Source of the DNA: an uncultured Phycisphaeraceae bacterium
GTDB lineage: Bacteria > Planctomycetota > Phycisphaerae > Phycisphaerales > UBA1924
Length of the DNA: 55,114 nt
Direction: 5' to 3'
Assembly (NCBI GenBank): GCA_964522095.1
Contig: CAZFSO010000004.1
Coordinates: 18,285 to 73,398, forward strand
Below are positions 205 to 11,726 of this stretch, one piece after another. How positions within the stretch are numbered: position 1 is the first letter of the stretch; every line of letters begins with the position of its first letter. The notes below the pieces were generated by a model. The model ran no database searches. It was given only the letters and a program-made list of their open reading frames with translations, and had not been told where the DNA came from. The position numbers and the translations under genes were made by a program.

Positions 205-1635
205 TCAGCACTCGGACATGCCGAGGGTGACGGAGAGTTTGACCGCCAGCCCGCCGAGCGAGGTCTCCTTGTACCGCTCGTTCATCTGCTTGGCGGTCTC
301 CCACATCACCGCGATCACGTCGTCGAGGGACACCCGGGCGAAGGCGGGGTCGGACTGCTCGGCGATGGTCGCCGAGGTGATGGCCTTGAGCGCTCCCATG
401 GCGTTGCGCTCGATGCAGGGGATCTGGACGAGGCCCCCGACGGGGTCGCAGGTCATGCCCAGGTGGTGCTCCATGGCGATCTCGGCGGCCATGAGGACCT
501 GGGCCGGGCTGGCACCGAGGAGTTCGGCCAGGCCGGCGGCCGCCATCGAACTGGAGACGCCGATCTCGGCCTGGCAGCCCCCCATGGCGGCGCTGATCGT
601 GGCGTTGCGCTTGAACAGGGCGCCGATCTGGCCCGCGGTGAGCAGGAACCGGACGACCTCGTCGTCGGTCAGGGGCTCGGGCCCGAAGCAGGCCCGGTAC
701 ATCAAAACCGCGGGGATGACGCCGGCCGCCCCGTTGGTGGGGGCGGTGACGACCCGGCCCATCGCCGCGTTCTCCTCGTTGACCGCGATGGCGTAGCAAC
801 TGACGACGCGGATGATCTGGTCGAAGGGCAGCCCGGCCGCCCGGACGGTGCCGATGAGCTGGTCGATGTCGGCGCGCTTGATGTCCGGGACGATGTCCCG
901 GAGGAACGACGGGGCCCGCCGCTTGACGTTCAGCCCGCCCGGGAGGACGCCCTCGATCCGGCAGCCGCGCCGGGCCGACTCGCGCATCACCTCCCAGACC
1001 CGCAGCGCCCGGCGGCGGACCTCGGGCTCGGGGAACCAGGTCAGTTCGTTCGCCAAGACGACGCCCGAGATGGGCTTGCCGGTGGCCTGGCAGTGCCGCA
1101 GCAGGTCGCTGGCGTGGCGGACGGGGTAGGGCGGCATGGCGCGGGCGGCGGAGGCGTCGGCGTCCGACTCGCCTTCGGCCGCGATGAATCCGCCGCCGAG
1201 GGAGAAGTAGGTCCGCCCGACCTCGCCCTCGGGCAGGAGGGCGACGCAGCGCATGGCGTTGGCGTGCTCGGGGTGCCGCTCGTTGCGGTGGAACCGGATC
1301 GCCTCGGCCGGGTCGAAGTCGACTTCGCGGTCGCCCAATCGCACCGACTTGGCGCCGTTCAGCCAGGTGAGTTTCTGCTCGATCGAGTCGACGGCGACCG
1401 TCTCGGGGTCCTCGCCGAGCACGGCGAGGCAGATGGCCTTGTCGGTGGCGTGGCCCCGGCCGGTCAGCGCGAGGCTGCCGATCAACTCGAACCGCAGGCC
1501 GGTCAGGCGGTCGAGCGAGCCGTCGGCCTGCAGGTCGGAGAGGAAACGCTGCACGATCCGCCAGGGGCCGAGCGTGTGCGAACTCGACGGGCCGACGCCC
1601 ACCTTGAACATGTCGAACGTGCTGATCGTGGGCAA
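205..1635 (-). CDS. sdaA: L-serine ammonia-lyase (L-serine dehydratase), single-chain iron-sulfur type
   Basis: 476-aa ORF. The N-terminus [24 protein letters not shown] matches the conserved start of SdaA-type enzymes. TTG start at 1635 with AAGGAG 8 nt upstream (1649-1644). Confidence 0.93.
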
Positions 1636-1676
1636 CCCGGGGACTCCTTGGGCCGGAGGATCCTACGGCCGCGCCG

Positions 1677-2405
1677 TCAGCCGGGGAGGGTTTCGCCCAG
1701 CAGGTCGCCCACGGACGCCTGGTTCTCGGGAGAAGCCAGGAGGCCCTGGCGGACCTCGACCTCGAGCCCGGCGTAGGCGGCTTCGGGGAACACCGACCGC
1801 AGCCGGGTCGTCAGGCCATCGTCCGTGCCGAGGTAGGGCTCGTTGAAGCGGATGCGAAGATCGCACGCGGCTTCCAGCCCGGCCCGCCAAAGGGCGCACA
1901 GGTCGGCCTCCCGGGGTCGGGCCGGGTCGAACAGCAGGCCGACGTCCAGGTTGCGGGCATGGCCTTCGAGCACGTCGGTGAAGGAATGGACGGCGACGTG
2001 GAGCACGCGCTGGCCGTGGTCGGCCCAGTCGCGCACGAGGCGTTCGACGCTGCGGCGGTGGGGGTGGTAAAACCGGTCGAGGATCTTGGTGCGTTCGGCG
2101 TCCGGCAGGCCGCGGGTGGTGGCGCTGAACAGGCCGGGGTTGTCCGGGGACCGGTTCGCCTCGACCAGGAGGCGCGTGGTGGTGGTCGCGAGCAGCGGCG
2201 CCGACCGGCGCACCGCCAGGCGCAGGGCCACGCCCAGCGCGCCGGGGTCCCAGCCCCGGTGGGAGTCGAGTTCGGCCCGGGCGTGGGCGAACAGGGCGGC
2301 GTAGGCGGCGGGCACCTCGTTGCCGGCGTGCTCGCAGGTGACGAGCAGGCGGGAGAAGGGGGGTGGGGGGGCCAGGGGGGGTGAGGGGGGCGGCTCAGTC
2401 GGCAT
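1677..2405 (-). CDS. N-formylglutamate amidohydrolase (FGase) family amidohydrolase with a proline-rich N-terminus
   Basis: 242-aa ORF with FGase-family motifs LLVTCEHAGNEVP, HRGWDPGA and VAVHSFT. ATG at 2405 overlaps the upstream gene's stop by 11 nt. Confidence 0.85.
   Translation of the reverse strand: MPTEPPPSPPLAPPPPFSRLLVTCEHAGNEVPAAYAALFAHARAELDSHRGWDPGALGVALRLAVRRSAPLLATTTTRLLVEANRSPDNPGLFSATTRGLPDAERTKILDRFYHPHRRSVERLVRDWADHGQRVLHVAVHSFTDVLEGHARNLDVGLLFDPARPREADLCALWRAGLEAACDLRIRFNEPYLGTDDGLTTRLRSVFPEAAYAGLEVEVRQGLLASPENQASVGDLLGETLPG
2358..2390 (+). other. G-quadruplex-type motif G6-T-G7-CCA-G7-TGA-G6 on the plus strand (template strand of the FGase gene)
   Basis: Read directly. 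The complement encodes PPPSPPLAPPPP at FGase codons 5-16. Confidence 0.8.
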
Positions 2406-3630
2406 GGAACATCCTGCCCTGCGCCAGGCAGTCGCACAGTTCGGCGTACACCGCGTGGAGTCGGGCGCGGTCCGGGTCCGGGCCGACGGCGCGGCGGATT
2501 CGGGTCGAGAGGGTCCCGGCCCGGAGGAGGCTCGATACCGCGTCGTCGGTCGGAAGGGTCCGGTCCGCGAGTGTCCGCCAGACGTCGCCGGCGGGCGTAG
2601 CGCGGGGCGGCAGGCCGAGGGCGGTAAGGAGGGCTGCGTCGCGCACCACGGCGTGCTCGGCGTCGCGGATGGTGTCCAGAAGGACCGCGTGCAGGGACTC
2701 GGTGCTCGGCGCCCGCTGGGCGGCGTCCGTCGACCAGCGGCCTTCTGTCAGCGCTCGGACGGTTTCGCAGACCAGCCGGACGACGGCCATGTCGGCGGCG
2801 GGGCACTCCTGGATGTCGATGACCCGGATCTCGATGGCGCCGCGGTCGAAGCGGGCCATGCCGCCCCGGGCGTTGGCGAACTCGTGGCGCAGCACGCCCT
2901 CGGGGTCCAAGGGGGCGAGTTGGGCGTACAGGGGGCCGAGCACCTCGGACTCGAAGGCGGCGCGGGTGAAGATTGGCTCGGGCACGACCAGGCCGGCCAT
3001 CGCGGGCACGCGGGCCGAGTTCGTGCGGTAGACCTCCATCCGGTGGTCCGCGAAGTCGGAACGGCGGGCGTCGACGACCGGGGAACTGGCGGCCAGGGCG
3101 GGGATCAGCGGCACCACCAGCCGGACGGCTGCGTGCAGGCGGCTGAACTCCTCGTCGTCGGCGAAGGGCAGGTTGACGTGGGTGCTCTGGAGGTTGGCCC
3201 AGCCGTGCCCGCGGCAGCCGAAGATCCGGTCGTAGGCCCGGTAGATCTCGGTGTTCTCGTGCGGCCAGAGGCGCATCTCGCGGTGAGGGTCCATCCACGG
3301 GTGCATGCCGGTGGGCATGAGGCGGCAGCCCATGGTGTCCAGCAGTTGGTTGATGCGTGCGACCTGCTCCTGGAAGACCCGCTCCAGACTGTCGAGGTGG
3401 GGCGTGGGCCGGGCGGTCTTGATCTCGACCACGTGCAGGGCGAGTTCGTTGGACCAGGAGGCCGGGCCGTCGGGGCCGTCGGGCAGGTGGTCGCCCGAGG
3501 CGTCGGAGCCGGCGGCGGCGAACAGGCGGTCGGCGACCGGGCGCACGTCGAGCGTGTCGCGGTCGACGATCATGTACTCGAGTTCGACGCCGTACGCGTC
3601 GAAGAGGCCCAGGGGGAACCGGTAGTTCAC
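2395..3630 (-). CDS. Glutamate-cysteine ligase family 2 (GCS2 / YbdK-like) carboxylate-amine ligase
   Basis: C-terminal 411 aa of track ORF 2395..5043, starting VVNYRFPLGLFDAYGVELEYMIVD, with STHVNLPF and AIEIRVID motifs. GTG at 3630-3628 overlaps the upstream TGA (GTGA). The remaining upstream part of that ORF is Arg/Pro/Gly-rich and out of frame with the real ATP-grasp gene on the same strand. Confidence 0.85.
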   Translation of the reverse strand: MNYRFPLGLFDAYGVELEYMIVDRDTLDVRPVADRLFAAAGSDASGDHLPDGPDGPASWSNELALHVVEIKTARPTPHLDSLERVFQEQVARINQLLDTMGCRLMPTGMHPWMDPHREMRLWPHENTEIYRAYDRIFGCRGHGWANLQSTHVNLPFADDEEFSRLHAAVRLVVPLIPALAASSPVVDARRSDFADHRMEVYRTNSARVPAMAGLVVPEPIFTRAAFESEVLGPLYAQLAPLDPEGVLRHEFANARGGMARFDRGAIEIRVIDIQECPAADMAVVRLVCETVRALTEGRWSTDAAQRAPSTESLHAVLLDTIRDAEHAVVRDAALLTALGLPPRATPAGDVWRTLADRTLPTDDAVSSLLRAGTLSTRIRRAVGPDPDRARLHAVYAELCDCLAQGRMFHAD

Positions 3631-5078
3631 GACCGGGGCTCCTCGAATCGGCGCAGGAAGTAGTCCATGACGGCCAGGTAGAGCCGGTCGCCGAGCAGCG
3701 CGTCCTCGATGCCGGCGTCGATGTTGGGGTTGTCGTTGACCTCGATGACCACGGCCTTGCCGCCGACGACCTTCAGGTCCACGCCGTAGAGCCCCTCGCC
3801 CATCAGGGCGGCGGAGCGCACGGCGAGTTTGAGAACGTCGTCGGGCACCTTCTGGATGGGGACGGCGGTGAAGTCGCCGTACTCGACCCCTTCCTCGGCG
3901 TGCTGGACGATCTGCCAGTGCCCGGGGGCCATGCCGTAGCGGCAGGCGAACAGCGGCGAGCCCCCGAGCACGCCGACGCGCCAGTCGTACTCGGTGGGCA
4001 CGAACTCCTGGGCGATGAGCAGGTCGCTCTCTTCGAAGAGCTGCTCGAGGCGCTGCTCGAGGTCCTCGCCGGAGTCGATCCGGCGCACGCCGACGGAGAA
4101 GGCGCTGTCCGGCTTCTTGAGGACGCACGGGAAGCCCAGCGAGCGGATGCCCTCCGCGGCGTTCTCCTGCGAGAGGATCAGCGTGCGGGGGGTGGCCAGG
4201 CGGTGGCGGTTGAGGGTCTCGGCCAGGTAGACCTTGTTCGTGCAGCGCACGATCGAGCGCGGGTCGTCGACGACGACCAGCCCCTCGGCCGACGCCCGGC
4301 GCGAGAAGCGGTAGGTGTGGTGGTTGACCTGCGTGGTCTCGCGGATGAACAGGCCGTTGTACTCGGCGATGCGCCCGTAACTGTCCTTCTCGATCAGGTC
4401 GCAGCGGATGCCCATCGACTCGCCCGCCTGGACGAAGCGCTTGAGGGCGGCGGCGTTCGACGGGGGGATCTCCTCCGCCGGGTTGTGCAGAATCGCCAGG
4501 TCGAAGCGGGCGGGGGGCGCGGACTTGCTCTTGCGCGGCGAGCGGCGCAGGTAGCGCTCGGCCTGCTCGATCACGAAAGGGCGGTGCGACTCGGGCACGT
4601 CGCCGAGGCCGAGCACCTTCACCCCGGTCATGCGCCATCGCCCGTCCTTCTCGAACCTTGCCCGCAGCAGGGGCGCGGGGAAGGCGTTGAACACCGCCTG
4701 GGCGAGTTTGTCGTGCCCGCCGGCGAGGTTGTGGCCGAAGTAGATGCTCACGTCGAACTCGTCGGACTTGATGCGCTTGAGGTTCTCCTGGATCAACTCG
4801 TCCAGGTCCTGCGACGCCACCCGGATCACCGGCGCCAGTTTGAGGTCCTGGATCACCGAGACCGACGGCAGCGGCTTGTGCCCCCGCGCCTCGGCCAGCA
4901 GCGACACGTAGTACCCCGCCGCCTGGTAGCGGAACGACCGGCACAGGTTGAACACCTTGCGCCCCGGCCCCTGGGCGTACTCGGGGTCCGAGAGGTACTG
5001 GTACGACGAGACGAGTTCCATGCCCGGGAACTTCAGCGGCCACCGCTTGGGGGTGTCGACGACGAGCAGCGGCTTCAC
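3627..5078 (-). CDS. RimK-type ATP-grasp ligase with an N-terminal RLAN-like (RimK-like ATP-grasp N-terminal) extension
   Basis: C-terminal 483 aa of track ORF 3627..5798. The N-terminal part FNLCRSFRYQAAGYYVSLLAEARGHKP is RLAN-like. ATP-grasp core: FPCVLKKPDSAFSVGV, LIAQEFVPTEYDWRVGVL, GVDLKVVGGKAVVIEVNDNP. GTG at 5078-5076 overlaps the upstream TGA (GTGA). Confidence 0.85.
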   Translation of the reverse strand: MKPLLVVDTPKRWPLKFPGMELVSSYQYLSDPEYAQGPGRKVFNLCRSFRYQAAGYYVSLLAEARGHKPLPSVSVIQDLKLAPVIRVASQDLDELIQENLKRIKSDEFDVSIYFGHNLAGGHDKLAQAVFNAFPAPLLRARFEKDGRWRMTGVKVLGLGDVPESHRPFVIEQAERYLRRSPRKSKSAPPARFDLAILHNPAEEIPPSNAAALKRFVQAGESMGIRCDLIEKDSYGRIAEYNGLFIRETTQVNHHTYRFSRRASAEGLVVVDDPRSIVRCTNKVYLAETLNRHRLATPRTLILSQENAAEGIRSLGFPCVLKKPDSAFSVGVRRIDSGEDLEQRLEQLFEESDLLIAQEFVPTEYDWRVGVLGGSPLFACRYGMAPGHWQIVQHAEEGVEYGDFTAVPIQKVPDDVLKLAVRSAALMGEGLYGVDLKVVGGKAVVIEVNDNPNIDAGIEDALLGDRLYLAVMDYFLRRFEEPRS

Positions 5079-5890
5079 GGTTCTTGTTCCTCGGCGGGGC
5101 GTGCGTCCGGCCCGTCGGTGGACGGCTCGAGCACGAGCAGGTTGGCGTCGTACGTCAGCACGCCGAGCATGATCGAGGGGATGATCCGCGACATCGGCAC
5201 CATGTAGTTGCGCGTCGAGAAGGGCGGGTTGTCCGCGAGCGGGTCGGCGACGTGGACCGACCGCGTGGCCGGGTCGTAGCCGTGGAGGACGACGAAGTGG
5301 CCCTGCGGCACGCCGCGCACGTCGTCGGGGTCGTCGTTCGGGCCGTACTCGCGGCAGGCCCGGTAAAGGTAGGTCGCGCTCAGGCCGGTCAACACCGGCC
5401 GGCCGGAGCGCACGTGCCCGACGAGCAGTTCGGTGGTGGGGTCCTCGAGCCGGATTTGGCCGCCGAGTCGCGCGAAGTCCAGGTAGGAGCGGGTGGCCGC
5501 CTGGAACTTGGCGTTCGTCTTGCCCTTCTCGGCGGCCTGCGCGACAAGTTTGTGCTCGAGCAGTTCGCCCGGCGCGGAGCCGTCCGCGCCGAACCAGGTC
5601 GGGTCGAACAGCGTGAGGTTGAAGGTGTAGAGGGTCGCGCGCATGCCCCGGCGCAGGGCGTCGATTCCGAGGACCACCGCCAGCGTGCCGCGTCCGGTCT
5701 CGGGCCGGGAGAGATCCCAGACCGAGTCGATGACCTCCTCCAGCCGGCAGTCCAGGCCCCAGTACCGGTAGACGGCGTGGAGCGACGTCGGCCCGCACGT
5801 CTCGTCGGTCGGCTGAAGGCTCATCTCGACGGGCAGGACGCTGGACCGGTCCGTGGGTTGTTGCTCGGCCCCCAAGAGGCGATGGGTCAT
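5075..5890 (-). CDS. Papain-fold (peptidase C39-like) cysteine peptidase or transpeptidase
   Basis: Candidate catalytic elements are QPTDETCGPTSL (Gln/Cys), GHFVVLHGYD (His) and VHVADP (Asp). ATG at 5890 with GGAGGG 4 nt upstream. No signal peptide is seen. Confidence 0.65.
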   Translation of the reverse strand: MTHRLLGAEQQPTDRSSVLPVEMSLQPTDETCGPTSLHAVYRYWGLDCRLEEVIDSVWDLSRPETGRGTLAVVLGIDALRRGMRATLYTFNLTLFDPTWFGADGSAPGELLEHKLVAQAAEKGKTNAKFQAATRSYLDFARLGGQIRLEDPTTELLVGHVRSGRPVLTGLSATYLYRACREYGPNDDPDDVRGVPQGHFVVLHGYDPATRSVHVADPLADNPPFSTRNYMVPMSRIIPSIMLGVLTYDANLLVLEPSTDGPDARPAEEQEP

Positions 5891-6000
5891 CCGACCCTCC
5901 GTTCGGCGACTGACGCGGCTGGCGTCACGCACCCCGGATTCTAAGCACCGCAACCCGCCCCGCCCGCCGTCGAACCCGGCGGGGGACGGAGAGGATTTCC

Positions 6001-6040
6001 GCAAAAAAAAGAGCGGAAGCTCTTCGAAAAGAACTTCCGC
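6001..6040 (-). terminator. Rho-independent terminator on the minus strand, about 110 nt upstream of the cassette start codon
   Basis: Minus-strand RNA: GCGGAAGUUCUU-UUCG-AAGAGCUUCCGC (6040-6013; 12-bp stem including one G-U, UUCG tetraloop) followed by UCUUUUUUUU (6012-6003). The wobble position is a C-A mismatch on the plus strand. Confidence 0.6.
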
Positions 6041-6043
6041 CGG

Positions 6044-6090
6044 ACGCTCCAAGCCGTCTCATCCTCCCCGACGGGACAGGCTCGGAGCGT
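6044..6090 (-). promoter_or_regulatory. Stable leader hairpin immediately upstream of the terminator (minus-strand RNA)
   Basis: ACGCUCCGAGCC (6090-6079) pairs with GGCUUGGAGCGU (6055-6044): 12 bp with one G-U, which is an A-C mismatch on the plus strand. 23-nt loop. Confidence 0.45.
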
Positions 6091-6306
6091 GCTCTGGAGC
6101 ACGTTCGGCCGCCGGAGCGGCCCTCCCTTCAAGGCGACAACGGGACGCAGCGGTCACGCGCGTTTCGAAAATTTCGAGAATCTTCGGGGTTCGCCGGTGT
6201 GAAACCCGGGGGAAGAGCCCGTCTGGGCCGGCAAACGGCGGTCGGCCATCCCCCCGTTCGGGTTGAGGGGCATCCTGCCCCCGTGGCGAACACTACACTC
6301 GGTCGT

Positions 6307-6945
6307 ATGTCCTCCCCGTCCCTGCATGAAGGGCTGCTGGCCAAGGCAGAGTCCGGCGATGTCGATGCGCTGGTCCGGCTGCTCGAAGAGATCGGCCCGA
6401 CGGTGCGCGCCGTCATCGAACCGAAGATCGGGCGCAAGCATCGCTCCGTGCTGTCCTGCGACGACGTGATGCAGGTCACCTACATGGAGTGCCTTTCCAG
6501 GTTCGACGCCTTCGGGGGCGGGGGGACCCGTGGCTTCCTGGCGTGGCTGATCCGGATCGCAGAGAACAACCTCATCGACGCGGTCCGCGGGCTTGAGGCG
6601 GCCAAACGCCCGAACGCCTCTCGGCGGGTGGGGGCGGGGGGCCGGGACGACTCGACCATCGCCATGGTCGAAGCGCTCGGGGTGACGATCTCGACGCCCT
6701 CGCTGGCCGCCGCCCGGGGCGAGGTGGTGTCCAGCATCCAGGGCGCGGTCGAGCGGCTCCCGGAGAGTTACGCACGCGTCGTCTCGATGTACGACCTGGA
6801 AGGCCGGCCCATCGAGGAGGTCGTGCAGGAACTGGGCCGGAGCAAGGGCGCGGTGTACATGCTCCGGGCCCGCGCCCACGAGCATCTGCGGGACCTTCTG
6901 GGCTCGGAATCGAAGTTTTTCACAAAAGTTGACTCAACCCGGTAA
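6307..6945 (+). CDS. ECF-type RNA polymerase sigma-70 family factor
   Basis: Region 2-like DVMQVTYMECLSRF / WLIRIAENNLIDAVR and region 4-like LPESYARVVSMYDLEGRPIEEVVQELGRSKGAVYMLRARAHEHL. ATG at 6307 chosen because the upstream part of the ORF is non-sigma-like. No obvious SD. Confidence 0.8.
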   Translation: MSSPSLHEGLLAKAESGDVDALVRLLEEIGPTVRAVIEPKIGRKHRSVLSCDDVMQVTYMECLSRFDAFGGGGTRGFLAWLIRIAENNLIDAVRGLEAAKRPNASRRVGAGGRDDSTIAMVEALGVTISTPSLAAARGEVVSSIQGAVERLPESYARVVSMYDLEGRPIEEVVQELGRSKGAVYMLRARAHEHLRDLLGSESKFFTKVDSTR

Positions 6946-6989: not shown

Positions 6990-9650
6990 ATGCAGACAGG
7001 TCCGGAACGAACTCGCGGCGGCCTGACCCTGGAACTGGGGGAGGTCTCGGAAGCATCGCGGCTGCGTGAGCGGGCGCTGATCCTGGCGGCGCTCAACCAG
7101 GTGGACCCGTCGACCTGGACGTCACGCGCCGCCTCGTCGGTCGTCGCGCCCGCACGCGGGCTGGACGACTCGACGGTCTCCGGCCCGCTGCTCGATCGCC
7201 CCTTGCTGCCGGGCCCCGACACCTTTCCGGGCTACACCATCCTGCGCGAGGTCCACCGGGGCGGGCAGGGCGTGGTGTATCTCGCCACGCAGCAGACCAC
7301 CCGGCGGCGCGTCGCGGTGAAGGTGATCCACGGCGGCGCCACGCTCGGCCCGACCGGCAGGGCCCGGTTCGAGCGCGAGGTCCAGCTGCTCGGGCAACTG
7401 AACCACCCGAACATCGTCAAACTGCACGACTCCGGCGTCACCAGCGACGGGAGCCTCTTCTACGTCATGGACTACGTGTCGGGCCGGGCGCTCGACGACG
7501 TGCTCCGCGAGCAGCGCCGCCGGTTCCGCGTCGAGTCTTCGAGGGCCCGCAGCCGGGCCGAGGGGCTGGACAGCGTCGACGGCGCCCTGCGGTTCTTCGC
7601 CAAGATCTGCGACGGCGTCAACGCCGCCCACCTCCGCGGCGTGATCCACCGCGACATCAAGCCCGCCAACGTCCGGGTCGACGAGCACGGCGAGCCGGTG
7701 CTGGTCGACTTCGGCCTGGCCAAGGTCTCCACCGCGGTGGGCGCCGAGCCCGGCGCGTCCGCGCCGATGACCCTGACCGGCCAGTTCGTCGGCTCGCTCC
7801 CCTGGGCCAGCCCCGAGCAGGCGGCGGGCGCGGGCGAGTCGATCGACCTGCGTTCGGACGTGTATTCCCTGGGCGTGATGCTCTACCAGATGCTCACGGG
7901 CGGGCAGTTCCCGTACGCCGTCAGCGGGAACATGCGCGACGTCCTGGACAACATCCAGCGTGCCGACCCCGAGCCGCCCAGCAACGCGCGGCGCCAGATC
8001 AACAACGAGGTCGAGACCATCGTCCTCAAGGCGATCGCGAAGGAGAAGGACCGACGCTACCAGAGCGCTGGCGAACTCGCCCGCGACGTCCGGCGTTACC
8101 TGCGCGGCGAGCCGATCGAGGCCAAGCGCGACGCGGGGTGGTACGTCATCCGCAAGACGCTCAACCGCCACCGGGTCGCCGCGACCTGCGCCGCGGCCGT
8201 CTGCCTGCTGGTGACCGGCTCGGCGGTCGCGATGACCGCGATGTGGCGGCAGTCCGACGCCGCCCGGGCCGTCGCCGTGGCCCAGCGCGACCGGGCGGAA
8301 GACAACCTCGCGGCCGTGCGCGACCTGGCGAACACCTTCCTTTACGACTTCAACGACGCGATCGCCAACCTCCGCGGCGCGACGCGGGCGCGCGAGACGG
8401 TGCTCGCCAAGGCGCTGGAGTATCTTGAGATCCTCGCGGCCCAGCCGGACCACGGGCCGGCCGCGCTCGCGTCGCTTGCCGACGCGCACGAGCGCATCGG
8501 GGACCTCTACGGCGCGCTCAACTCGGCCAACCTCGGCTCGTCGGCCAAAGCGGCCGAGCACTACAGCGCCGCGCTGGAGATCCGCCAGCGCCTCGCCGTG
8601 GCCTTCCCCGACGACCCGCACCACAAGTCGGCCCTCGCCCGGACCTGGGAACGCATCGGGGAGAGCCGGATCAAGCACGAGGACTTCTCGTCGGCGCTGG
8701 AGGCGTACGAGTGGGGCCGGCGCTTCGCCGAGCAGGCCGACGACACGCCCGCCCGTCTGGCGCTCGCGACGCGCGTCGCCGACGCCCACCGCCGGCTGGC
8801 CGAGGGCATGCGCGATGACCCGCAGGCCTTCGCCGCCCGGATGGACCTGGCGGCGTCGATGTACGCCCAGGCCGACGCGGGCTGGGCCGCCCTCGACGCG
8901 CCCGAATCGCCGCGCCGCCGCGCGATCCTGGTCAGCAAGCAGGCCCAGACGCTCCTGCAGCGTGCGGCCGTGGCGACGCGCCACAACGATCTCGAAGCCG
9001 CGGGCGACCTGATCGGCACGGGCGCGGAGATGATCGGCCGGGTGCTGCCGCGGTTCGAGGCCATGCTGGCGGCGAGCCCGGCGGACTACCAGACCGCGCG
9101 TGACCTGTGGGTGGTCGTGCACTACCTCGGGCAGGCGCACTTCGAGGCCGCGGAGGTGCACGCCGGCCTCGGCGACGACGAGGCCGCCCGCCGGGCACGC
9201 GAGGAGGCGCTCGCGACCTTCACGCGCCTGCACGCCCTGGCCGAGTCGCTGGCGACCGACGAATCGAACATCGAGGCCCAGCGCGACCTGGGCGTCTCGA
9301 CCAACAAACTCGGCAACACGCTGAGCGCGTTGGGACGCCTGGACGAGGCCCGGGACGCCTTCGAGCGGAACGTGGTGCTCTGGAAGGGCCTGTACGCCTC
9401 GGACCCCGTCGAGCGGCACCTGCGCGACCTCGGCGTCGGGCAGCACAAGGTGGCCGAGACGGACGAGCGTCTGGCCGACCACGCCGAGACGGAGGCCGAG
9501 CGCGTCGCGCTGCTCCGCCTGGCGCAGGCGGGGTACCAGACCGCGGAGGCAACCTTCCGCCAGTTCGAGACGCGGGGCGGTGACGCGGCGCGTCTGCTCA
9601 GGTCAGTCCGGGAGAGCCTGGACCGCGTCGCGGAGAAACTCGGCGGCTGA
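6990..9650 (+). CDS. Membrane-anchored Ser/Thr protein kinase with a large TPR-like helical C-terminal domain
   Basis: Hanks kinase motifs GGQGVVYLA...VAVKVI, HRDIKPANV, DFGLAK and SPEQ. One TM segment (VAATCAAAVCLLVTGSAVAMTAMW), then about 450 aa of helical repeats. Confidence 0.9.
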   Translation: MQTGPERTRGGLTLELGEVSEASRLRERALILAALNQVDPSTWTSRAASSVVAPARGLDDSTVSGPLLDRPLLPGPDTFPGYTILREVHRGGQGVVYLATQQTTRRRVAVKVIHGGATLGPTGRARFEREVQLLGQLNHPNIVKLHDSGVTSDGSLFYVMDYVSGRALDDVLREQRRRFRVESSRARSRAEGLDSVDGALRFFAKICDGVNAAHLRGVIHRDIKPANVRVDEHGEPVLVDFGLAKVSTAVGAEPGASAPMTLTGQFVGSLPWASPEQAAGAGESIDLRSDVYSLGVMLYQMLTGGQFPYAVSGNMRDVLDNIQRADPEPPSNARRQINNEVETIVLKAIAKEKDRRYQSAGELARDVRRYLRGEPIEAKRDAGWYVIRKTLNRHRVAATCAAAVCLLVTGSAVAMTAMWRQSDAARAVAVAQRDRAEDNLAAVRDLANTFLYDFNDAIANLRGATRARETVLAKALEYLEILAAQPDHGPAALASLADAHERIGDLYGALNSANLGSSAKAAEHYSAALEIRQRLAVAFPDDPHHKSALARTWERIGESRIKHEDFSSALEAYEWGRRFAEQADDTPARLALATRVADAHRRLAEGMRDDPQAFAARMDLAASMYAQADAGWAALDAPESPRRRAILVSKQAQTLLQRAAVATRHNDLEAAGDLIGTGAEMIGRVLPRFEAMLAASPADYQTARDLWVVVHYLGQAHFEAAEVHAGLGDDEAARRAREEALATFTRLHALAESLATDESNIEAQRDLGVSTNKLGNTLSALGRLDEARDAFERNVVLWKGLYASDPVERHLRDLGVGQHKVAETDERLADHAETEAERVALLRLAQAGYQTAEATFRQFETRGGDAARLLRSVRESLDRVAEKLGG

Positions 9651-9737
9651 ACCGTTCCCGGGACGTCGGCAGGAGGAGGCCGGCGGCTCGGGGCAGCCGT
9701 GCAACCGGGGTGCAGACCCCACGAGAGAGGTGCAGAC

Positions 9738-11726
9738 ATGCGAGCCGTGAGCCGATCAATCATCGCCGCGGGGCCCTTGGTCCTCGCGGCCGGGCACGCC
9801 GTGGCCCAGCAGGACGCGTTCTGGTCCAACCCGGCCGGCGGCTGGTGGTCCGACAGCGGGAACTGGGCGTCCGGTGTGGTGCCCAACAACAGCGGCTCGA
9901 ACCTGTTCAATGCCGTGCTCGACCTCCAGGGGGGCGTGTATCAGGTGGACCTCGACGTCGACGTGTCGCTGCAGAACCTCTCGCTGCTCGGCGCCGACAC
10001 GCGCCTGAACCTGGGTTCGCGGAGCCTCACGGTGCACGAGAACCTCAGCGTCGTCAACGCGACGATCGTCCGGGGCGGGTTCGAGAACGACCTGACGGTC
10101 AACGGCCAACTCAGGCTCCAGGACTCCATGCTGATGTACGCGGGCGTGGTGACCTCGAACGGCAGCGTTGTGCTCGACGGCGACTACGAGATCGACATCT
10201 GCAACACCGGCGTCGACCACTACGGCTCCGGCGGCATCCTCTGGCAGGGCGCCGCCAACCTGCGCATCGACTCGAACGGCTGGCTGACCAACGGGCCCGG
10301 GTCGACCTTCACCATCGCCCCGGGCGCGAGCAAGTCGATCGTCGGCGACGGCACGGGCCGGCTGAACAACTACGGCACGCTCATCGTCGGCTCGGGCGGC
10401 CGCGGCGAGCAGGCAAACGTCACGGTCAACGACGTCATCTTCAACAACGCCGGCGCGGTCGTCGTGGAGGGCGGTTCGCTGACGCTCAACACGCCCAACA
10501 ACCTGGCCCCGGGCGGCGTGCTCGGCGAGGGATCGTGGTCGGTGCGCAACGGGGCCGTCCTGGACTTCGGCCAGTGGGGCTTCCACACGCTGGCCGCGGA
10601 GGTCAGCATCTCCGGCGCCGGGTCGTCGTTCACGCAGATCGCCGGCCTGACCGAGATCTCCGCCACCGGGCGCTTCGAGGTGCTCGACGGCTACGGCTTC
10701 GAGGCGGGGGCCGCGTTCTTCAACCACGGCGAGATCGCCGTCGGCGCGGGGTCGTCGTTCAGCACGTCGGTCTTCGGGCTCGGCAACCTGAACGGGACGA
10801 CGCTGGCGGGCGGCGCCTACCGCGTCGCCGGGTTTTTCGACTCGGGCGCCGAACGCATCACCCACCTGGCGGGGGCGCAAGTCGCGCTGATCGGCGCGGA
10901 CGCCCAGTTCGCCGGCATCGAGGCCATCGAGCACGTCGGGTCCGGCGCCCGCTTCGCCATCGACCAGGGGCGCAACTTCACCACTCAGGGCGACCTGACC
11001 GTGGTGGCCGGGGGGGCCATCGGCGTGGGCGAGGGGTCGGTCCTGACGGTGAACGGCACGCTGACGAACAACCGCCCGGACGGCTCGTTCGCGGACGGGC
11101 ACTTCGAGGTCACGGGCACGCTCGTCGCGAGCGGGCTGCAGGTCAACCGCATCGACGGGGAACTCGTCCTCAACGGGGCCAACTCGGCCGTGCTCGACCA
11201 GCACGGCAACGACGCCCTGGCCGGGCTCTCGGGGATCGGCGAGTCCGGCGTGCTCCGCCTGCGCGAGGGCCGGTCGCTCGAGACCATCGGCAACCTGACC
11301 GTCGAGGGCGTGCTCGCCATCGAGGGCCCCGGCGAGGGGCGCTCGGGCACGGACTGCGTGCTCGACATCGGGGGCCAACTGCACTTCGCGGACACCGCGG
11401 TGCTCTCGATGCTCATCGACGGGTCCACCGGACGCCAGCGCGGCGAGATTCTCTCGGCCGCGACCCGCATCGACGAGGGCGCCACGCTTGAACTCGTCCT
11501 CGCCGAGGGCGTGTCGCTGAACCTCGGCGACACCATCCGCCTGCTTGAAACCGGGGCCCTGTCCGGCACGTTCAGCACCGTGGTCGGCACCGACATCGGC
11601 GCAGGGCTGTGGTTCGAGGTCGTCCAGGACGCCGGCGCGGTCTACGCGGTCGTCGTGCCCGCCCCGGGGGCGGCCGGGCTGCTCGGGCTCGCGGGGCTGG
11701 CGGCGACCCGGCGGCGACGCCGCTGA
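9738..11726 (+). CDS. Secreted repeat protein (beta-helix-like G/N/T-rich repeats) with a C-terminal PEP-CTERM sorting signal
   Basis: Signal peptide MRAVSRSIIAAGPLVLAAGHAVAQ. The C-terminus VVPAPGAAGLLGLAGLAATRRRRR fits the PEP-CTERM pattern. ATG at 9738 with GAGAGAGG 7 nt upstream. Confidence 0.7.
   Translation: MRAVSRSIIAAGPLVLAAGHAVAQQDAFWSNPAGGWWSDSGNWASGVVPNNSGSNLFNAVLDLQGGVYQVDLDVDVSLQNLSLLGADTRLNLGSRSLTVHENLSVVNATIVRGGFENDLTVNGQLRLQDSMLMYAGVVTSNGSVVLDGDYEIDICNTGVDHYGSGGILWQGAANLRIDSNGWLTNGPGSTFTIAPGASKSIVGDGTGRLNNYGTLIVGSGGRGEQANVTVNDVIFNNAGAVVVEGGSLTLNTPNNLAPGGVLGEGSWSVRNGAVLDFGQWGFHTLAAEVSISGAGSSFTQIAGLTEISATGRFEVLDGYGFEAGAAFFNHGEIAVGAGSSFSTSVFGLGNLNGTTLAGGAYRVAGFFDSGAERITHLAGAQVALIGADAQFAGIEAIEHVGSGARFAIDQGRNFTTQGDLTVVAGGAIGVGEGSVLTVNGTLTNNRPDGSFADGHFEVTGTLVASGLQVNRIDGELVLNGANSAVLDQHGNDALAGLSGIGESGVLRLREGRSLETIGNLTVEGVLAIEGPGEGRSGTDCVLDIGGQLHFADTAVLSMLIDGSTGRQRGEILSAATRIDEGATLELVLAEGVSLNLGDTIRLLETGALSGTFSTVVGTDIGAGLWFEVVQDAGAVYAVVVPAPGAAGLLGLAGLAATRRRRR

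Follow-up and report, generated by a model that had tools for sequence, protein, structure and literature searches.

What is made by four overlapping genes that bring together two ATP-dependent ligases and two hydrolases of amide bonds? The genes in question lie in a 55,114-nt stretch of DNA from an uncultured Phycisphaeraceae bacterium (contig CAZFSO010000004.1), which was analyzed as a whole and is hereafter called the window, and they run co-directionally on the minus strand from position 5890 to position 1677, successive genes overlapping. Read on that strand, gene 1 (5075..5890) begins with an ATG at 5890, preceded 7 nt upstream by GGAGGG, and ends with a TGA at 5077-5075; it encodes a 271-aa papain-fold cysteine peptidase or transferase that is Peptidase_C39_2-like. 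The ATP-grasp ligase encoded by gene 2 (3627..5078) has 483 aa and belongs to the RimK/LysX clade; it carries at its N terminus an RLAN domain (Pfam PF14401; residues 27-171, positions 4566..5000), followed by a catalytic ATP-grasp region (residues ~237-466, positions 3681..4370) that aligns with RimK and LysX structures. Gene 3 (2395..3630) specifies a 411-aa carboxylate-amine ligase of the GCS2 family, and gene 4 (1677..2405), with its stop codon at 1679-1677, a 242-aa hydrolase of the FGase (N-formylglutamate amidohydrolase-like) family. The joins can be read directly from the sequence and are those described in the original prediction: a GTGA at 5075..5078, within which the GTG start of gene 2 overlaps the end of gene 1, a second GTGA at 3627..3630 between genes 2 and 3, and an 11-nt overlap at 2395..2405 between genes 3 and 4 (ATG at 2405, TGA at 2397-2395). 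The four genes form one translationally coupled operon, as had been proposed, and the coupling is kept in relatives, where all three junctions have a median gap of -4 nt.

The comparison set comprised 80 species-level genomes or loci from about ten phyla, and counts were restricted to loci with enough flanking sequence. Across these 80 genomes the neighborhood is conserved in the same order (C39-like gene, RLAN ligase, GCS2, FGase), and the cassette occurs in Planctomycetota, several classes of Pseudomonadota (including Legionella and Thiobacillus), Bacteroidota, Ignavibacteriota, Nitrospirota, Nitrospinota, Acidobacteriota, Verrucomicrobiota, Thermodesulfobacteriota, and Tectomicrobia. The complete four-gene set was found in 47 of 64 loci with enough flank, in agreement with the earlier proposal of a cassette. 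The C39-like gene adjoins in 70 of 77 loci, and GCS2 does so in 68 of 71; of the 66 loci with enough flank for FGase, 49 have it, about one quarter of the cassettes being without this gene. A gap of -4 nt is the commonest at the gene 1/gene 2 junction (72 loci) and occurs in 31 of 70 loci at the gene 2/gene 3 junction (median, -4 nt), and genes 3 and 4 overlap or abut in 33 of 51 loci. This gene arrangement is well beyond chance. Outside the class, the median identity to the window proteins is 46-51% for all four, and this similar divergence suggests that the four proteins evolve as one unit. No fifth gene is conserved beside the cassette in the 80 loci, nor is a small ORF that could encode a precursor, carrier, or tag; the cassette proteins themselves have no conserved acidic tail at the C terminus. 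Thus, the earlier statement that no gene for ribosomal protein S6, a precursor peptide, or an exporter accompanies the cassette holds beyond the window; in particular, rpsF was found near the cassette neither in the window nor in the 80 loci.

The gene that follows the cassette in the window is sdaA (205..1635, minus strand; TTG start at 1635), co-directional and 41 bp downstream of gene 4, which encodes L-serine ammonia-lyase (TIGR00720, 539 bits vs. a cutoff of 345; Pfam SDH_alpha and SDH_beta). The 41-bp spacer between the FGase gene and sdaA contains no terminator-like site, and sdaA is probably co-transcribed with the cassette in the window. The two are adjacent in only 2 of the 80 loci, those of the two closest relatives (L004 and L005), and elsewhere the downstream gene differs, for instance, PEPCK in L002 and YHYH in L001. 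sdaA is therefore outside the conserved cassette, its linkage being lineage-specific, and the suggested connection to serine, cysteine, or glutamate metabolism is not sustained.

The four family assignments of the original prediction were recovered by Pfam profile search, and the family-typical conserved residues are retained in all four proteins, with recognized catalytic signatures for the peptidase and the GCS2 ligase. The product of gene 1 scores 41.7 bits against PF13529 (Peptidase_C39_2; cutoff 24, E 2.3e-10) in a match that spans residues 150-217 only, and its translation contains all three motifs previously singled out (QPTDETCGPTSL, GHFVVLHGYD, and VHVADP). The catalytic set Gln26/Cys32/His198/Asp216 is conserved at ≥97% at each position among 68 orthologues (Q26, C32, H198, and D216). 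In Foldseek searches, the AF2 model (pLDDT 82.7) yielded papain-fold matches with a probability of 1.0, but weak ones (TM ≤0.46). The isopeptidase PeiR is among the best of them, and Alr0975 also appears (TM 0.34-0.41, 10-12% identity), although not above PCAT C39 domains or PeiR. The phytochelatin-synthase comparison offered speculatively in the original prediction draws weak support from this Alr0975 match. The gathering score, the Gln-Cys-His-Asp set, and the papain-like fold of the model together identify gene 1 as a predicted Peptidase_C39_2/papain-fold protein. Membership in the phytochelatin synthase family was rejected, as gene 1 has no Pfam match to Phytochelatin (PF05023) at E≤0.01, and a bacteriocin-processing C39 peptidase of the PCAT/ComA type was rejected because the protein stands alone at 271 aa, with no adjoining ABC transporter or conserved small ORF.

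The RLAN match of gene 2 is strong (155.2 bits vs. a cutoff of 25, E 1.3e-45, residues 27-171; 157.9 bits for the isolated region alone), and in its C-terminal part ATP-grasp_3, RimK, and Dala_Dala_lig_C all exceed the Pfam cutoff; K321, D434, E446, and N448, which correspond to ATP- and Mg-binding positions, are ≥97% conserved in 81 sequences. With PF14401 and an ATP-grasp region both matched, gene 2 can be classified as a putative RLAN-domain RimK-like ATP-grasp ligase. The catalytic domain is closest to RimK, LysX, and MptN: in a profile search of the PDB, RimK and LysX were the best matches (RimK structures at 1.6e-13 to 2e-09), and the region aligns with RimK structures 7qyr, 4iwx, and 3vpd and with LysX 1uc8. 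The same search gave no PDB sequence match over the RLAN region, which in Pfam matches RLAN alone even at E≤10 and no other domain, that of the cyanophycin synthetase N terminus included. RLAN carries a near-invariant motif, GYYVSLLAEARGH, and falls into 796 clusters when the representative library is grouped at 50% identity; gene 2 has more than 8000 homologues or protein clusters, and an RLAN ligase is present in at least 597 species-representative genomes. Gene 2 is not RimK proper, scoring 60.1 bits against TIGR00768 (cutoff 143.4) and leaving the S6-ligase equivalog NF007764 (PRK10446) unmatched. Nor is it a cyanophycin synthetase, given that its RLAN region matches only RLAN and that CphA structures match only the ATP-grasp core (E=0.008). 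Solo RLAN ligases occur in P. aeruginosa, Azospirillum, and loci L044, L070, L073, and L083. GNAT-RLAN-ATP-grasp fusions exist as well, with a dicarboxylate-type transporter adjoining and no GCS2, C39, or FGase gene seen nearby, but on short contigs; the GNAT of one of them scores 90.5 bits, above the RimI (S18 acetyltransferase) cutoff of 86.4. These fusions were rejected as Ngg orthologues (TIGR03103, 29 bits vs. a cutoff of 569).

Gene 3 scores 88.1 bits against PF04107 (GCS2; cutoff 21, E 8.5e-25) and contains, as G14-V-E16-L-E18, the GhExE Mg/ATP signature defined in PMC2588565; G14, E16, E18, E62, H66, and E69 are invariant in 69 orthologues. The Pfam score and this signature mark it as a likely GCS2 carboxylate-amine ligase. 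It was rejected as YbdK or GshA, its best NCBIfam score being 57.3 bits for TIGR02050 (cutoff 176.4), with other models lower, and a profile search of the PDB returned only plant GCL at E=0.065. Gene 4 matches PF05013 (FGase) at 85.3 bits (cutoff 28.9, E 8.6e-24) over profile positions 1-217 of 219, which predicts an FGase family member over the full domain; its E25, H26, D53, H136, and H140 are conserved, and its closest solved structure is Atu2144 (2odf, 1.2e-26). Except for this FGase homologue, none of the cassette proteins has a close solved structure. Gene 4 was rejected as HutG, with no NCBIfam family at E≤0.01 and no hut genes conserved nearby. Because every NCBIfam equivalog cutoff was missed by all four proteins, the cassette does not correspond to classical RimK or glutathione biochemistry, as originally argued. 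No PADLOC anti-phage defence model matched any of the four proteins.

Signal peptides are absent from all four, and the cassette has no linked exporter; hence, the product is expected to be intracellular. The explanation that we tentatively favor, as a possible one, is a cytoplasmic module, complete in itself, in which a small gamma-/alpha-glutamyl peptide would be both made and broken down; we infer the substrates, the sequence of steps, and the task of each hydrolase as follows. The first step would fall to the GCS2 ligase, which would activate a carboxylate (by the precedent of its characterized relatives, most likely the gamma-carboxylate of glutamate) and couple it to the amine of an amino acid to yield an N-(gamma-glutamyl) amino acid. 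The RLAN/RimK-clade ligase would then activate the free alpha-carboxylate of this N-blocked intermediate and add an alpha-linked amino acid, most likely glutamate, the usual nucleophile of the RimK/LysX clade. The FGase-family enzyme would hydrolyze an N-acyl-glutamate amide, the type of bond made by RimK-class ligases, and the papain-fold enzyme would cleave or transfer a gamma-glutamyl or isopeptide unit via a Cys32 acyl-enzyme. By analogy, this logic would resemble that of glutathione synthesis (GshA followed by GshB), N-acetyl-aspartyl-glutamate, and NAGGN, where the substrate of the ATP-grasp ligase is an N-blocked acidic amino acid and the finished compound is recycled by hydrolases of its own. 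Characterized GCS2 and FGase enzymes have free amino acids or N-acyl-glutamate as substrates. The absence of a conserved fifth gene, small ORF, or acidic C-terminal tail may likewise speak for a glutamyl peptide, the same argument having been used to favor peptide formation over tagging for other GS-fold ligases (PMC2588565). The GNAT fusions without GCS2, C39, or FGase nearby fit a view of GNAT and GCS2 as alternative N-acylating partners, and Ngg of NAGGN synthesis, a characterized GNAT plus ATP-grasp enzyme, offers a parallel to them (PMC8070244).

Several considerations weigh against a glutamyl peptide. Two ligases and two hydrolases at fixed stoichiometry resemble a futile cycle unless the hydrolases act in maturation, and roughly one cassette in four lacks the FGase gene. 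RLAN ligases also occur solo, and the ligase is therefore not strictly dependent on a GCS2 product; its conservation (~51% identity across phyla, like the rest) could equally mean a macromolecular substrate. Furthermore, operons that combine a writer with an eraser, such as rimK-rimB, are better precedented for protein modification (PMC10092738). The best surviving rival, which we nevertheless regard as rather unlikely, is a reversible system of protein or peptide glutamylation with its target encoded elsewhere, in which RLAN would dock a protein, the RimK-type domain would add alpha-glutamates to its C terminus as RimK does on S6, GCS2 would add a gamma-linked branch or prime a side chain in the fashion of Pup ligase, and the papain-fold and FGase-family enzymes would trim or remove the modification like deubiquitinases, RimB, or Dop. 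In addition to the rimK-rimB precedent, this rival draws on the origin of Pup ligase from GS-fold ligases (PMC2588565), on the protein-modifying RimK and LysX as the best solved relatives of the catalytic domain, on PeiR among the best structural matches of the papain-fold protein, on the GNAT fusion that passes the RimI cutoff, and on the solo RLAN ligases, whose substrate must be encoded elsewhere. Conversely, LysW-type carriers and Pup are normally encoded beside their ligases, whereas the surroundings of the cassette contain no conserved gene for a carrier, tag, or target; nor do the cassette proteins have a conserved acidic C terminus, and the RimK-family model was missed (60 bits vs. 143). 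Small-molecule precedents are the only ones known to us for FGase and for GCS2 proper (the PafA family set aside), which also counts against protein glutamylation.

Unlikely, too, is a bolder version in which the cassette is a compact bacterial writer and eraser of a reversible peptide tag, that is, a glutamylation code akin to tubulin polyglutamylation or pupylation, with targets encoded elsewhere in the genome, the system being spread over about ten phyla. The amine of a target would here receive a gamma-glutamyl branch from GCS2, which the RLAN-RimK ligase would lengthen with alpha-glutamates, RLAN serving as the target-recognition module, and the papain-fold and FGase-family enzymes would be a dedicated debranching and trimming pair.

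The synthesis and mobilization of a branched polyamide reserve, by analogy with cyanophycin, appears improbable. The RimK-type ligase would build a poly-alpha-glutamate backbone while RLAN holds the growing chain, and GCS2 would attach an amine or amino acid to the gamma-carboxyls of the side chains; for mobilization, units would be released from the polymer by the papain-fold enzyme and then split by the FGase-family enzyme. The parts list parallels that of the cyanophycin system, in which CphA1, with its N domain, ATP-grasp domain, and second ligase, acts ahead of cyanophycinase and a dipeptidase. The 483 aa of RLAN and ATP-grasp are laid out like the N and G domains of CphA1, and the four proteins are cytoplasmic with no linked exporter. 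RimK can synthesize poly-alpha-glutamate in vitro (PMC10375531). Nevertheless, RLAN shows no detectable similarity to other Pfam domains, the cyanophycin synthetase N domain among them, and cyanophycin synthase matches only the ATP-grasp core (E=0.008).

Finally, a route of the Puu or Ipu type, by which an amine or amino acid would be gamma-glutamylated temporarily on its way to utilization (detoxification), a GS-fold ligase masking the amine and a cysteine hydrolase later releasing it, is very improbable: the pairing of the GCS2 ligase with a thiol hydrolase mirrors PuuA and PuuD, but the required oxidoreductase, transporter, and regulator are not conserved with the cassette and the second ligase would be left without a role. 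GS-fold ligases beside thiol peptidases have been noted (PMC2588565), which is in its favor.

Neither a product nor a function of the cassette turned up in full-text searches of the literature, in line with the earlier statement that no product is known. Iyer, Abhiman, Burroughs, and Aravind (Mol Biosyst 5:1636) reportedly defined RLAN in 2009 and noted RimK-like ATP-grasp genes beside COOH-NH2 (GCS2) ligases and peptidases. We take that study, given the adjacent Pfam accession numbers, to be the likely source of the Pfam RLAN family, and the window cassette is presumably the kind of amidoligase neighborhood that it described; we know of no experimental follow-up, and none emerged from the literature searches. 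The window cassette is an ordinary member of a bioinformatically known, biochemically orphan system, a clean, fully overlapped example with otherwise nothing unusual. Few orphan pathways are equally compact, conserved, and widespread. Two ATP-dependent amide-bond formers and two amide hydrolases need no other linked gene, and heterologous expression should therefore suffice to reveal the product. That product could turn out to be a common but hitherto undescribed glutamyl peptide of the cell interior, serving as a stress protectant, thiol buffer, or reserve; otherwise, a novel modification of bacterial proteins or a novel biopolymer would come to light. Each of these three outcomes would give roles to four generically annotated sub-families and a first function to the RLAN domain.

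Among known systems, RimK/RimB glutamylation of S6 in E. coli and Pseudomonas shares with the cassette an ATP-grasp domain of the same clade and a ligase co-encoded with a peptidase. Unlike RimK (~300 aa), gene 2 has 483 aa with RLAN and misses the TIGR00768 cutoff, the peptidase is papain-fold rather than of the RimB type, GCS2 and FGase are extra, and no S6 link was found. Glutathione biosynthesis (GshA plus GshB), considered together with the phytochelatin-synthase-like Alr0975, offers the same pairing of a GCS2-superfamily ligase with an ATP-grasp ligase, along with a papain-fold protein for which a gamma-glutamyl acyl-enzyme is conceivable. However, all gshA and gshB NCBIfam models fall far below cutoff, the cassette ATP-grasp belongs to the RimK/LysX clade and not to the GshB clade, and gene 1 has no Pfam Phytochelatin match and resembles Alr0975 at TM 0.34-0.41 only. 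CphA1 with cyanophycinase and isoaspartyl dipeptidase likewise joins two different ATP-dependent amide-bond formers to two hydrolases and has an accessory domain N-terminal to its ATP-grasp domain, but the sequence relationship is confined to the generic ATP-grasp core, and the second ligase of the cassette is of the GS fold, not Mur-ligase-like. The NAGGN pathway (the GNAT plus ATP-grasp enzyme Ngg, AsnO, and the peptidase PA3461) uses GNAT where the cassette uses GCS2, and its AsnO is absent from the cassette, whereas in both an N-blocked amino acid is, or would be, extended by an ATP-grasp ligase, a peptidase is encoded in the same operon (PMC8070244), and RLAN ligases, too, are found fused to GNAT.

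The four genes of the cassette occupy the minus strand of the window and overlap at every junction. Direct reading of 1600-6300, together with the ORF list, places gene 1, which encodes a C39-like papain-fold peptidase, between an ATG at 5890, preceded 7 nt 5' by GGAGGG, and a TGA at 5077-5075. Gene 2, for an RLAN-containing ATP-grasp ligase of the RimK/LysX clade, runs from GTG at 5078 to TGA at 3629-3627; gene 3, for a GCS2 ligase, from GTG at 3630 to TGA at 2397-2395; and gene 4, for an FGase-family amidohydrolase, from ATG at 2405 to TGA at 1679-1677. The GTGA at 5078-5075 serves as both the start of gene 2 and the stop of gene 1, a second GTGA overlap sets the start of gene 3 at 3630 on the stop of gene 2, and genes 3 and 4 overlap by 11 nt. 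The L-serine ammonia-lyase gene, sdaA, begins on the same strand with TTG at 1635, after a 41-bp spacer. The coordinates given for genes and overlaps in the original prediction were each correct on the minus strand, and every peptide motif it cited was found in the translations.

The predicted families were likewise upheld by profile-HMM searches against Pfam, which matched the gene 1 product to Peptidase_C39_2 (2.3e-10, with only the C-terminal His/Asp half aligned), the gene 2 product to RLAN (1.3e-45) and also to ATP-grasp_3, RimK, and Dala_Dala_lig_C, and the products of genes 3 and 4 to GCS2 (8.5e-25) and FGase (8.6e-24), respectively. None of the four proteins reached a curated NCBIfam cutoff. 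The gene 2 product scored 68 bits with LysX, 60 with rimK_fam, and 54 with MptN, each far under threshold, the gene 3 product scored 57 bits against the 176 required for the YbdK family, and the peptidase and FGase protein had no meaningful NCBIfam match; sdaA, an NCBIfam equivalog, scored 539 bits against a cutoff of 345. Because the superfamilies are matched, yet the curated cutoffs are missed, all four are true superfamily members that belong to subfamilies without a characterized representative. In searches against solved structures, the gene 2 profile aligned with RimK and LysX (1e-13 to 1e-9) over residues ~237-466 only, with no match to the RLAN region; the GCS2 profile found plant glutamate-cysteine ligase at a marginal E=0.065, and the peptidase profile one structural-genomics "C39-like peptidase" (0.0025). 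The sole reasonable solved homolog among the four proteins was that of the FGase, Atu2144 (entry 2odf, 1.2e-26).

Residue conservation, assessed in alignments of 49-81 orthologs, suggests that all four proteins are functional enzymes. The peptidase retains the full papain-type set (Gln26, Cys32, His198, and Asp216), the ATP-grasp domain Lys321, Asp434, Glu446, and Asn448, the GCS2 protein Gly14, Glu16, Glu18, Glu62, His66, and Glu69, and the FGase protein Glu25, His26, Asp53, His136, and His140, all at least 97% conserved. Gly14, Glu16, and Glu18 of the GCS2 protein constitute the GhExE Mg/ATP signature (PMC2588565), and the position of the ATP-grasp and FGase residues in family-typical motifs points to catalytic or metal-binding roles. 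Modeled with AlphaFold (pLDDT 82.7), the peptidase adopts a papain-like fold into which a helical segment is inserted. The top PDB matches are uniformly weak (TM 0.33-0.46) and comprise a pseudomurein endoisopeptidase, C39 domains of PCAT/ComA, and Alr0975, a primitive phytochelatin synthase; thus, the model confirms the predicted papain-like fold, with no specificity readable from these matches.

The cassette is widespread. The ligase has more than 8000 homologs, the closest of which come from Phycisphaerales MAGs and so assign the window to this planctomycetotal order, and a scan of one genome per species recovered a relative in at least 597 genomes, of which the best 80 loci were used for comparison. 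These include Planctomycetota of both Phycisphaerae and Planctomycetia, Pseudomonadota (Thiobacillus thioparus DSM 505, Burkholderiales, Gallionellaceae, Chromatiales, and Hyphomicrobiaceae), and Thermodesulfobacteriota, Tectomicrobia, Ignavibacteriota, Acidobacteriota, Nitrospirota, Nitrospinota, Verrucomicrobiota, and Bacteroidota (Imperialibacter). Cultured carriers include T. thioparus DSM 505 (L062), Blastopirellula marina DSM 3645 (L019), in which FGase is missing, Imperialibacter (L061 and L066), and Planctomicrobium SH527 (L027). Searches with the four window proteins (tblastn and blastp) found the same gene order and strand across the best 80 loci. Among those with enough flanking sequence, the C39-like gene lies directly upstream of the ligase in 70 of 77, GCS2 directly downstream in 68 of 71, and FGase next in order in 49 of 66; the complete set, present in 47 of 64 loci, bears out the cassette claim of the original prediction. 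Outside Phycisphaerae, the median identities to the window proteins are similar for the four (49%, 51%, 50%, and 46%), which suggests evolution of the set as a unit. At all three junctions, the median distance is -4 nt, and therefore the translational coupling in the window is an ancestral property of the cassette.

Pfam annotation independently bears out the pattern in a MAG labeled Burkholderiaceae (L001), and shows the first three genes, without FGase, on a 3.9-Mb Phycisphaerales chromosome (L002). The last three are present in a record of Legionella adelaidensis, under the PGAP names "RimK family protein," "glutamate-cysteine ligase family protein," and "N-formylglutamate amidohydrolase." The cassette proteins of L001 (GCA_049793275.1) are 55-67% identical to those of the window, much above the ~50% of other Pseudomonadota and even Planctomycetia, which is suggestive of either a recent horizontal acquisition or a contig binned in error. 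Separately, the FGase ORF of an Ignavibacteriales MAG (L040:10705-11967) extends to 420 aa, with weak, sub-threshold HD-domain matches (HD_4, 3.3e-4) in the extra C-terminal 200 residues, and may represent a fusion or a read-through.

To define what accompanies the cassette, we clustered all flanking ORFs of at least 70 aa in the 80 loci. Antisense shadows of the four genes aside, the next-largest real family occurs in 10 of the 80 loci, so that there is no fifth conserved neighbor, and no exporter is conserved beside the cassette in this set. Among ORFs of 20-110 aa lying up to 1.2 kb from the cassette, the only conserved ones were low-complexity artifacts and the antisense of the peptidase active-site motif, with no LysW-like carrier, Pup-like tag, or RiPP precursor among them. 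The lack of a nearby precursor-peptide gene and exporter, noted for the window, thus extends across loci. Signal peptides were found in none of the four proteins, and none matches a PADLOC defense-system model. A self-substrate with an acidic C-terminal tail was also rejected: the tail of the window peptidase, PAEEQEP, is not conserved, and orthologs are mostly basic there. The proposed connection of the cassette to serine metabolism did not hold. Of the 80 loci, only L004 and L005, the two closest relatives, resemble the window in having sdaA after the cassette, and the serine link therefore reflects an accident of local gene order.

The remainder of the window is ordinary chromosome, with dxs, an ECF sigma factor with a Ser/Thr kinase, a histidine kinase, a Na/alanine symporter, and RecX. 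The ECF-type sigma factor (Sigma70_r4_2; 6199-6945, plus strand) and the 886-aa Ser/Thr protein kinase with TPR repeats (6990-9650, plus strand) are divergent from the cassette and not conserved beside it in other genomes. They are followed at 9699-11726 (plus strand) by a 675-aa protein without a Pfam match, whose C terminus, a hydrophobic stretch and then RRRRR (…GLLGLAGLAATRRRRR), is suggestive of a secreted repeat protein with a PEP-CTERM-type sorting signal. A strong hairpin resembling an intrinsic terminator, at 6041-6004 on the minus strand (13-bp stem, GGCGGAAGTTCTTTTCGAAGAGCTTCCGCT, then T8), lies ~115 nt upstream of the gene 1 start on the same strand, between the divergently transcribed cassette and ECF sigma gene, where no gene ends. 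It may act as an attenuator or mark where a small RNA ends; Rfam had no match in this region, and a role as regulatory leader of the cassette was rejected, the hairpin being absent 5' of the cassette in relatives.

RLAN ligases also occur outside the cassette. The isolated RLAN domain (PF14401) matches 796 clusters at 50% identity, most full-length members being 480-540 aa long. An AF2 model of the RLAN ligase, built from a 10-sequence alignment, was poor (pLDDT 58, pTM 0.40). RLAN as a duplicated pre-ATP-grasp module was rejected on comparison of its region with the catalytic half by hhalign (probability 0.3%), and no Pfam or PDB signal related RLAN to the N domain of cyanophycin synthetase. 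In a minority of RLAN proteins (metagenomic P0367, P0370, and P0312; loci L088-L092), an N-terminal GNAT domain yields a GNAT-RLAN-ATP-grasp architecture. No C39, GCS2, or FGase gene was found near these fusions, on short contigs, and one of them adjoins a CitMHS/DcuC-type transporter and a second GNAT. The GNAT of P0370 exceeds the RimI (S18 N-acetyltransferase) equivalog cutoff (90.5 bits versus 86.4).

Solo RLAN ligases are present in four of the best 80 loci and, at ~45% identity, in Pseudomonas aeruginosa (L084, NZ_CP133752.1) and on Azospirillum brasilense Sp7 p1 (L085), the latter two with no C39, GCS2, or FGase gene within 7 kb. We take the L084 region to be PA1338-PA1346, with PA1345 as the ligase. 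The gene is flanked by an SDR oxidoreductase, immediately followed by pagP, and by a class I/II aminotransferase in convergent orientation; ggt and a Glu/Asp ABC transporter are encoded a few kb upstream, and the record, labeled a "plasmid," resembles a chromosomal fragment. The literature lists PA1345 only as hypothetical. In Francisella tularensis, deletion of FTT0178 ("rimK," 490 aa), a possible RLAN protein, left virulence unattenuated (PMC2675058), and its neighbors, an acetyltransferase and rec2 (PMC2682660), mark a locus type different from the cassette.

Past family membership and conservation, we can only infer what the cassette does, substrates included. GCS2 enzymes activate a carboxylate by phosphorylation, typically that in the gamma position of Glu, and join it to an amine. 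Ligases of the RimK/LysX/MptN clade link the alpha-amine of Glu, or of a close analog, to a carboxylate that usually belongs to a glutamyl moiety or an N-blocked acidic amino acid. FGase enzymes cleave N-acyl-glutamate, the type of bond that RimK-class ligases form, and papain-fold enzymes act through a thioester, often on gamma-glutamyl or isopeptide bonds, as hydrolases or transferases. By the chemistry of these relatives, the cassette would comprise two writers and two matching erasers. We tentatively favor, as the most likely reading, the production and recycling of a small intracellular gamma-/alpha-glutamyl peptide, because no carrier, tag, or exporter is linked, the enzymes are all cytoplasmic, an alternative partner exists in GNAT, and, to our knowledge, the precedents for GCS2 and FGase are exclusively small-molecule ones. 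The main rival, reversible glutamylation of a protein encoded elsewhere, draws on the RimK/LysX affinity of the ligase, the existence of solo RLAN ligases, and the precedent of the rimK-rimB writer-plus-eraser operon (PMC10092738); we regard it as rather unlikely. A cyanophycin-like branched polymer seems improbable as the product, and an amine-utilization route more improbable still.

Full-text literature searches on RLAN (PF14401), the four products under their PGAP names, and combinations of GCS2, FGase, and C39 yielded no experimental study of the cassette, in line with the original statement that no product had been identified experimentally, and the literature on FTT0178, PA1345, and NAGGN led to no characterized member. 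A 2009 survey of amidoligases (Iyer, Abhiman, Burroughs, and Aravind) reportedly described the RLAN domain and neighborhoods of ATP-grasp, COOH-NH2 ligase, and peptidase genes. The system is thus a known bioinformatic pattern that is biochemically orphan, and the window holds a typical, cleanly overlapped member of what amounts to an unusually compact, widespread orphan pathway.

Two features recall the NAGGN osmolyte pathway. On the Phycisphaerales chromosome with the three-gene cassette (L002/L009, OZ245825.1), and in this lineage only, a gene for an AsnO-like glutamine-dependent asparagine synthase (GATase_6/7 and Asn_synthase; 2196-4013) lies ~3 kb upstream on the opposite strand, reminiscent of the asnO-ngg pairing of NAGGN synthesis. 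The GNAT-RLAN-ATP-grasp fusions are not orthologs of the NAGGN synthetase Ngg (29 bits versus 569 for TIGR03103), and the relationship is one of analogy only: both follow a common logic, in which an N-acylating domain precedes an ATP-grasp peptide ligase (PMC8070244).
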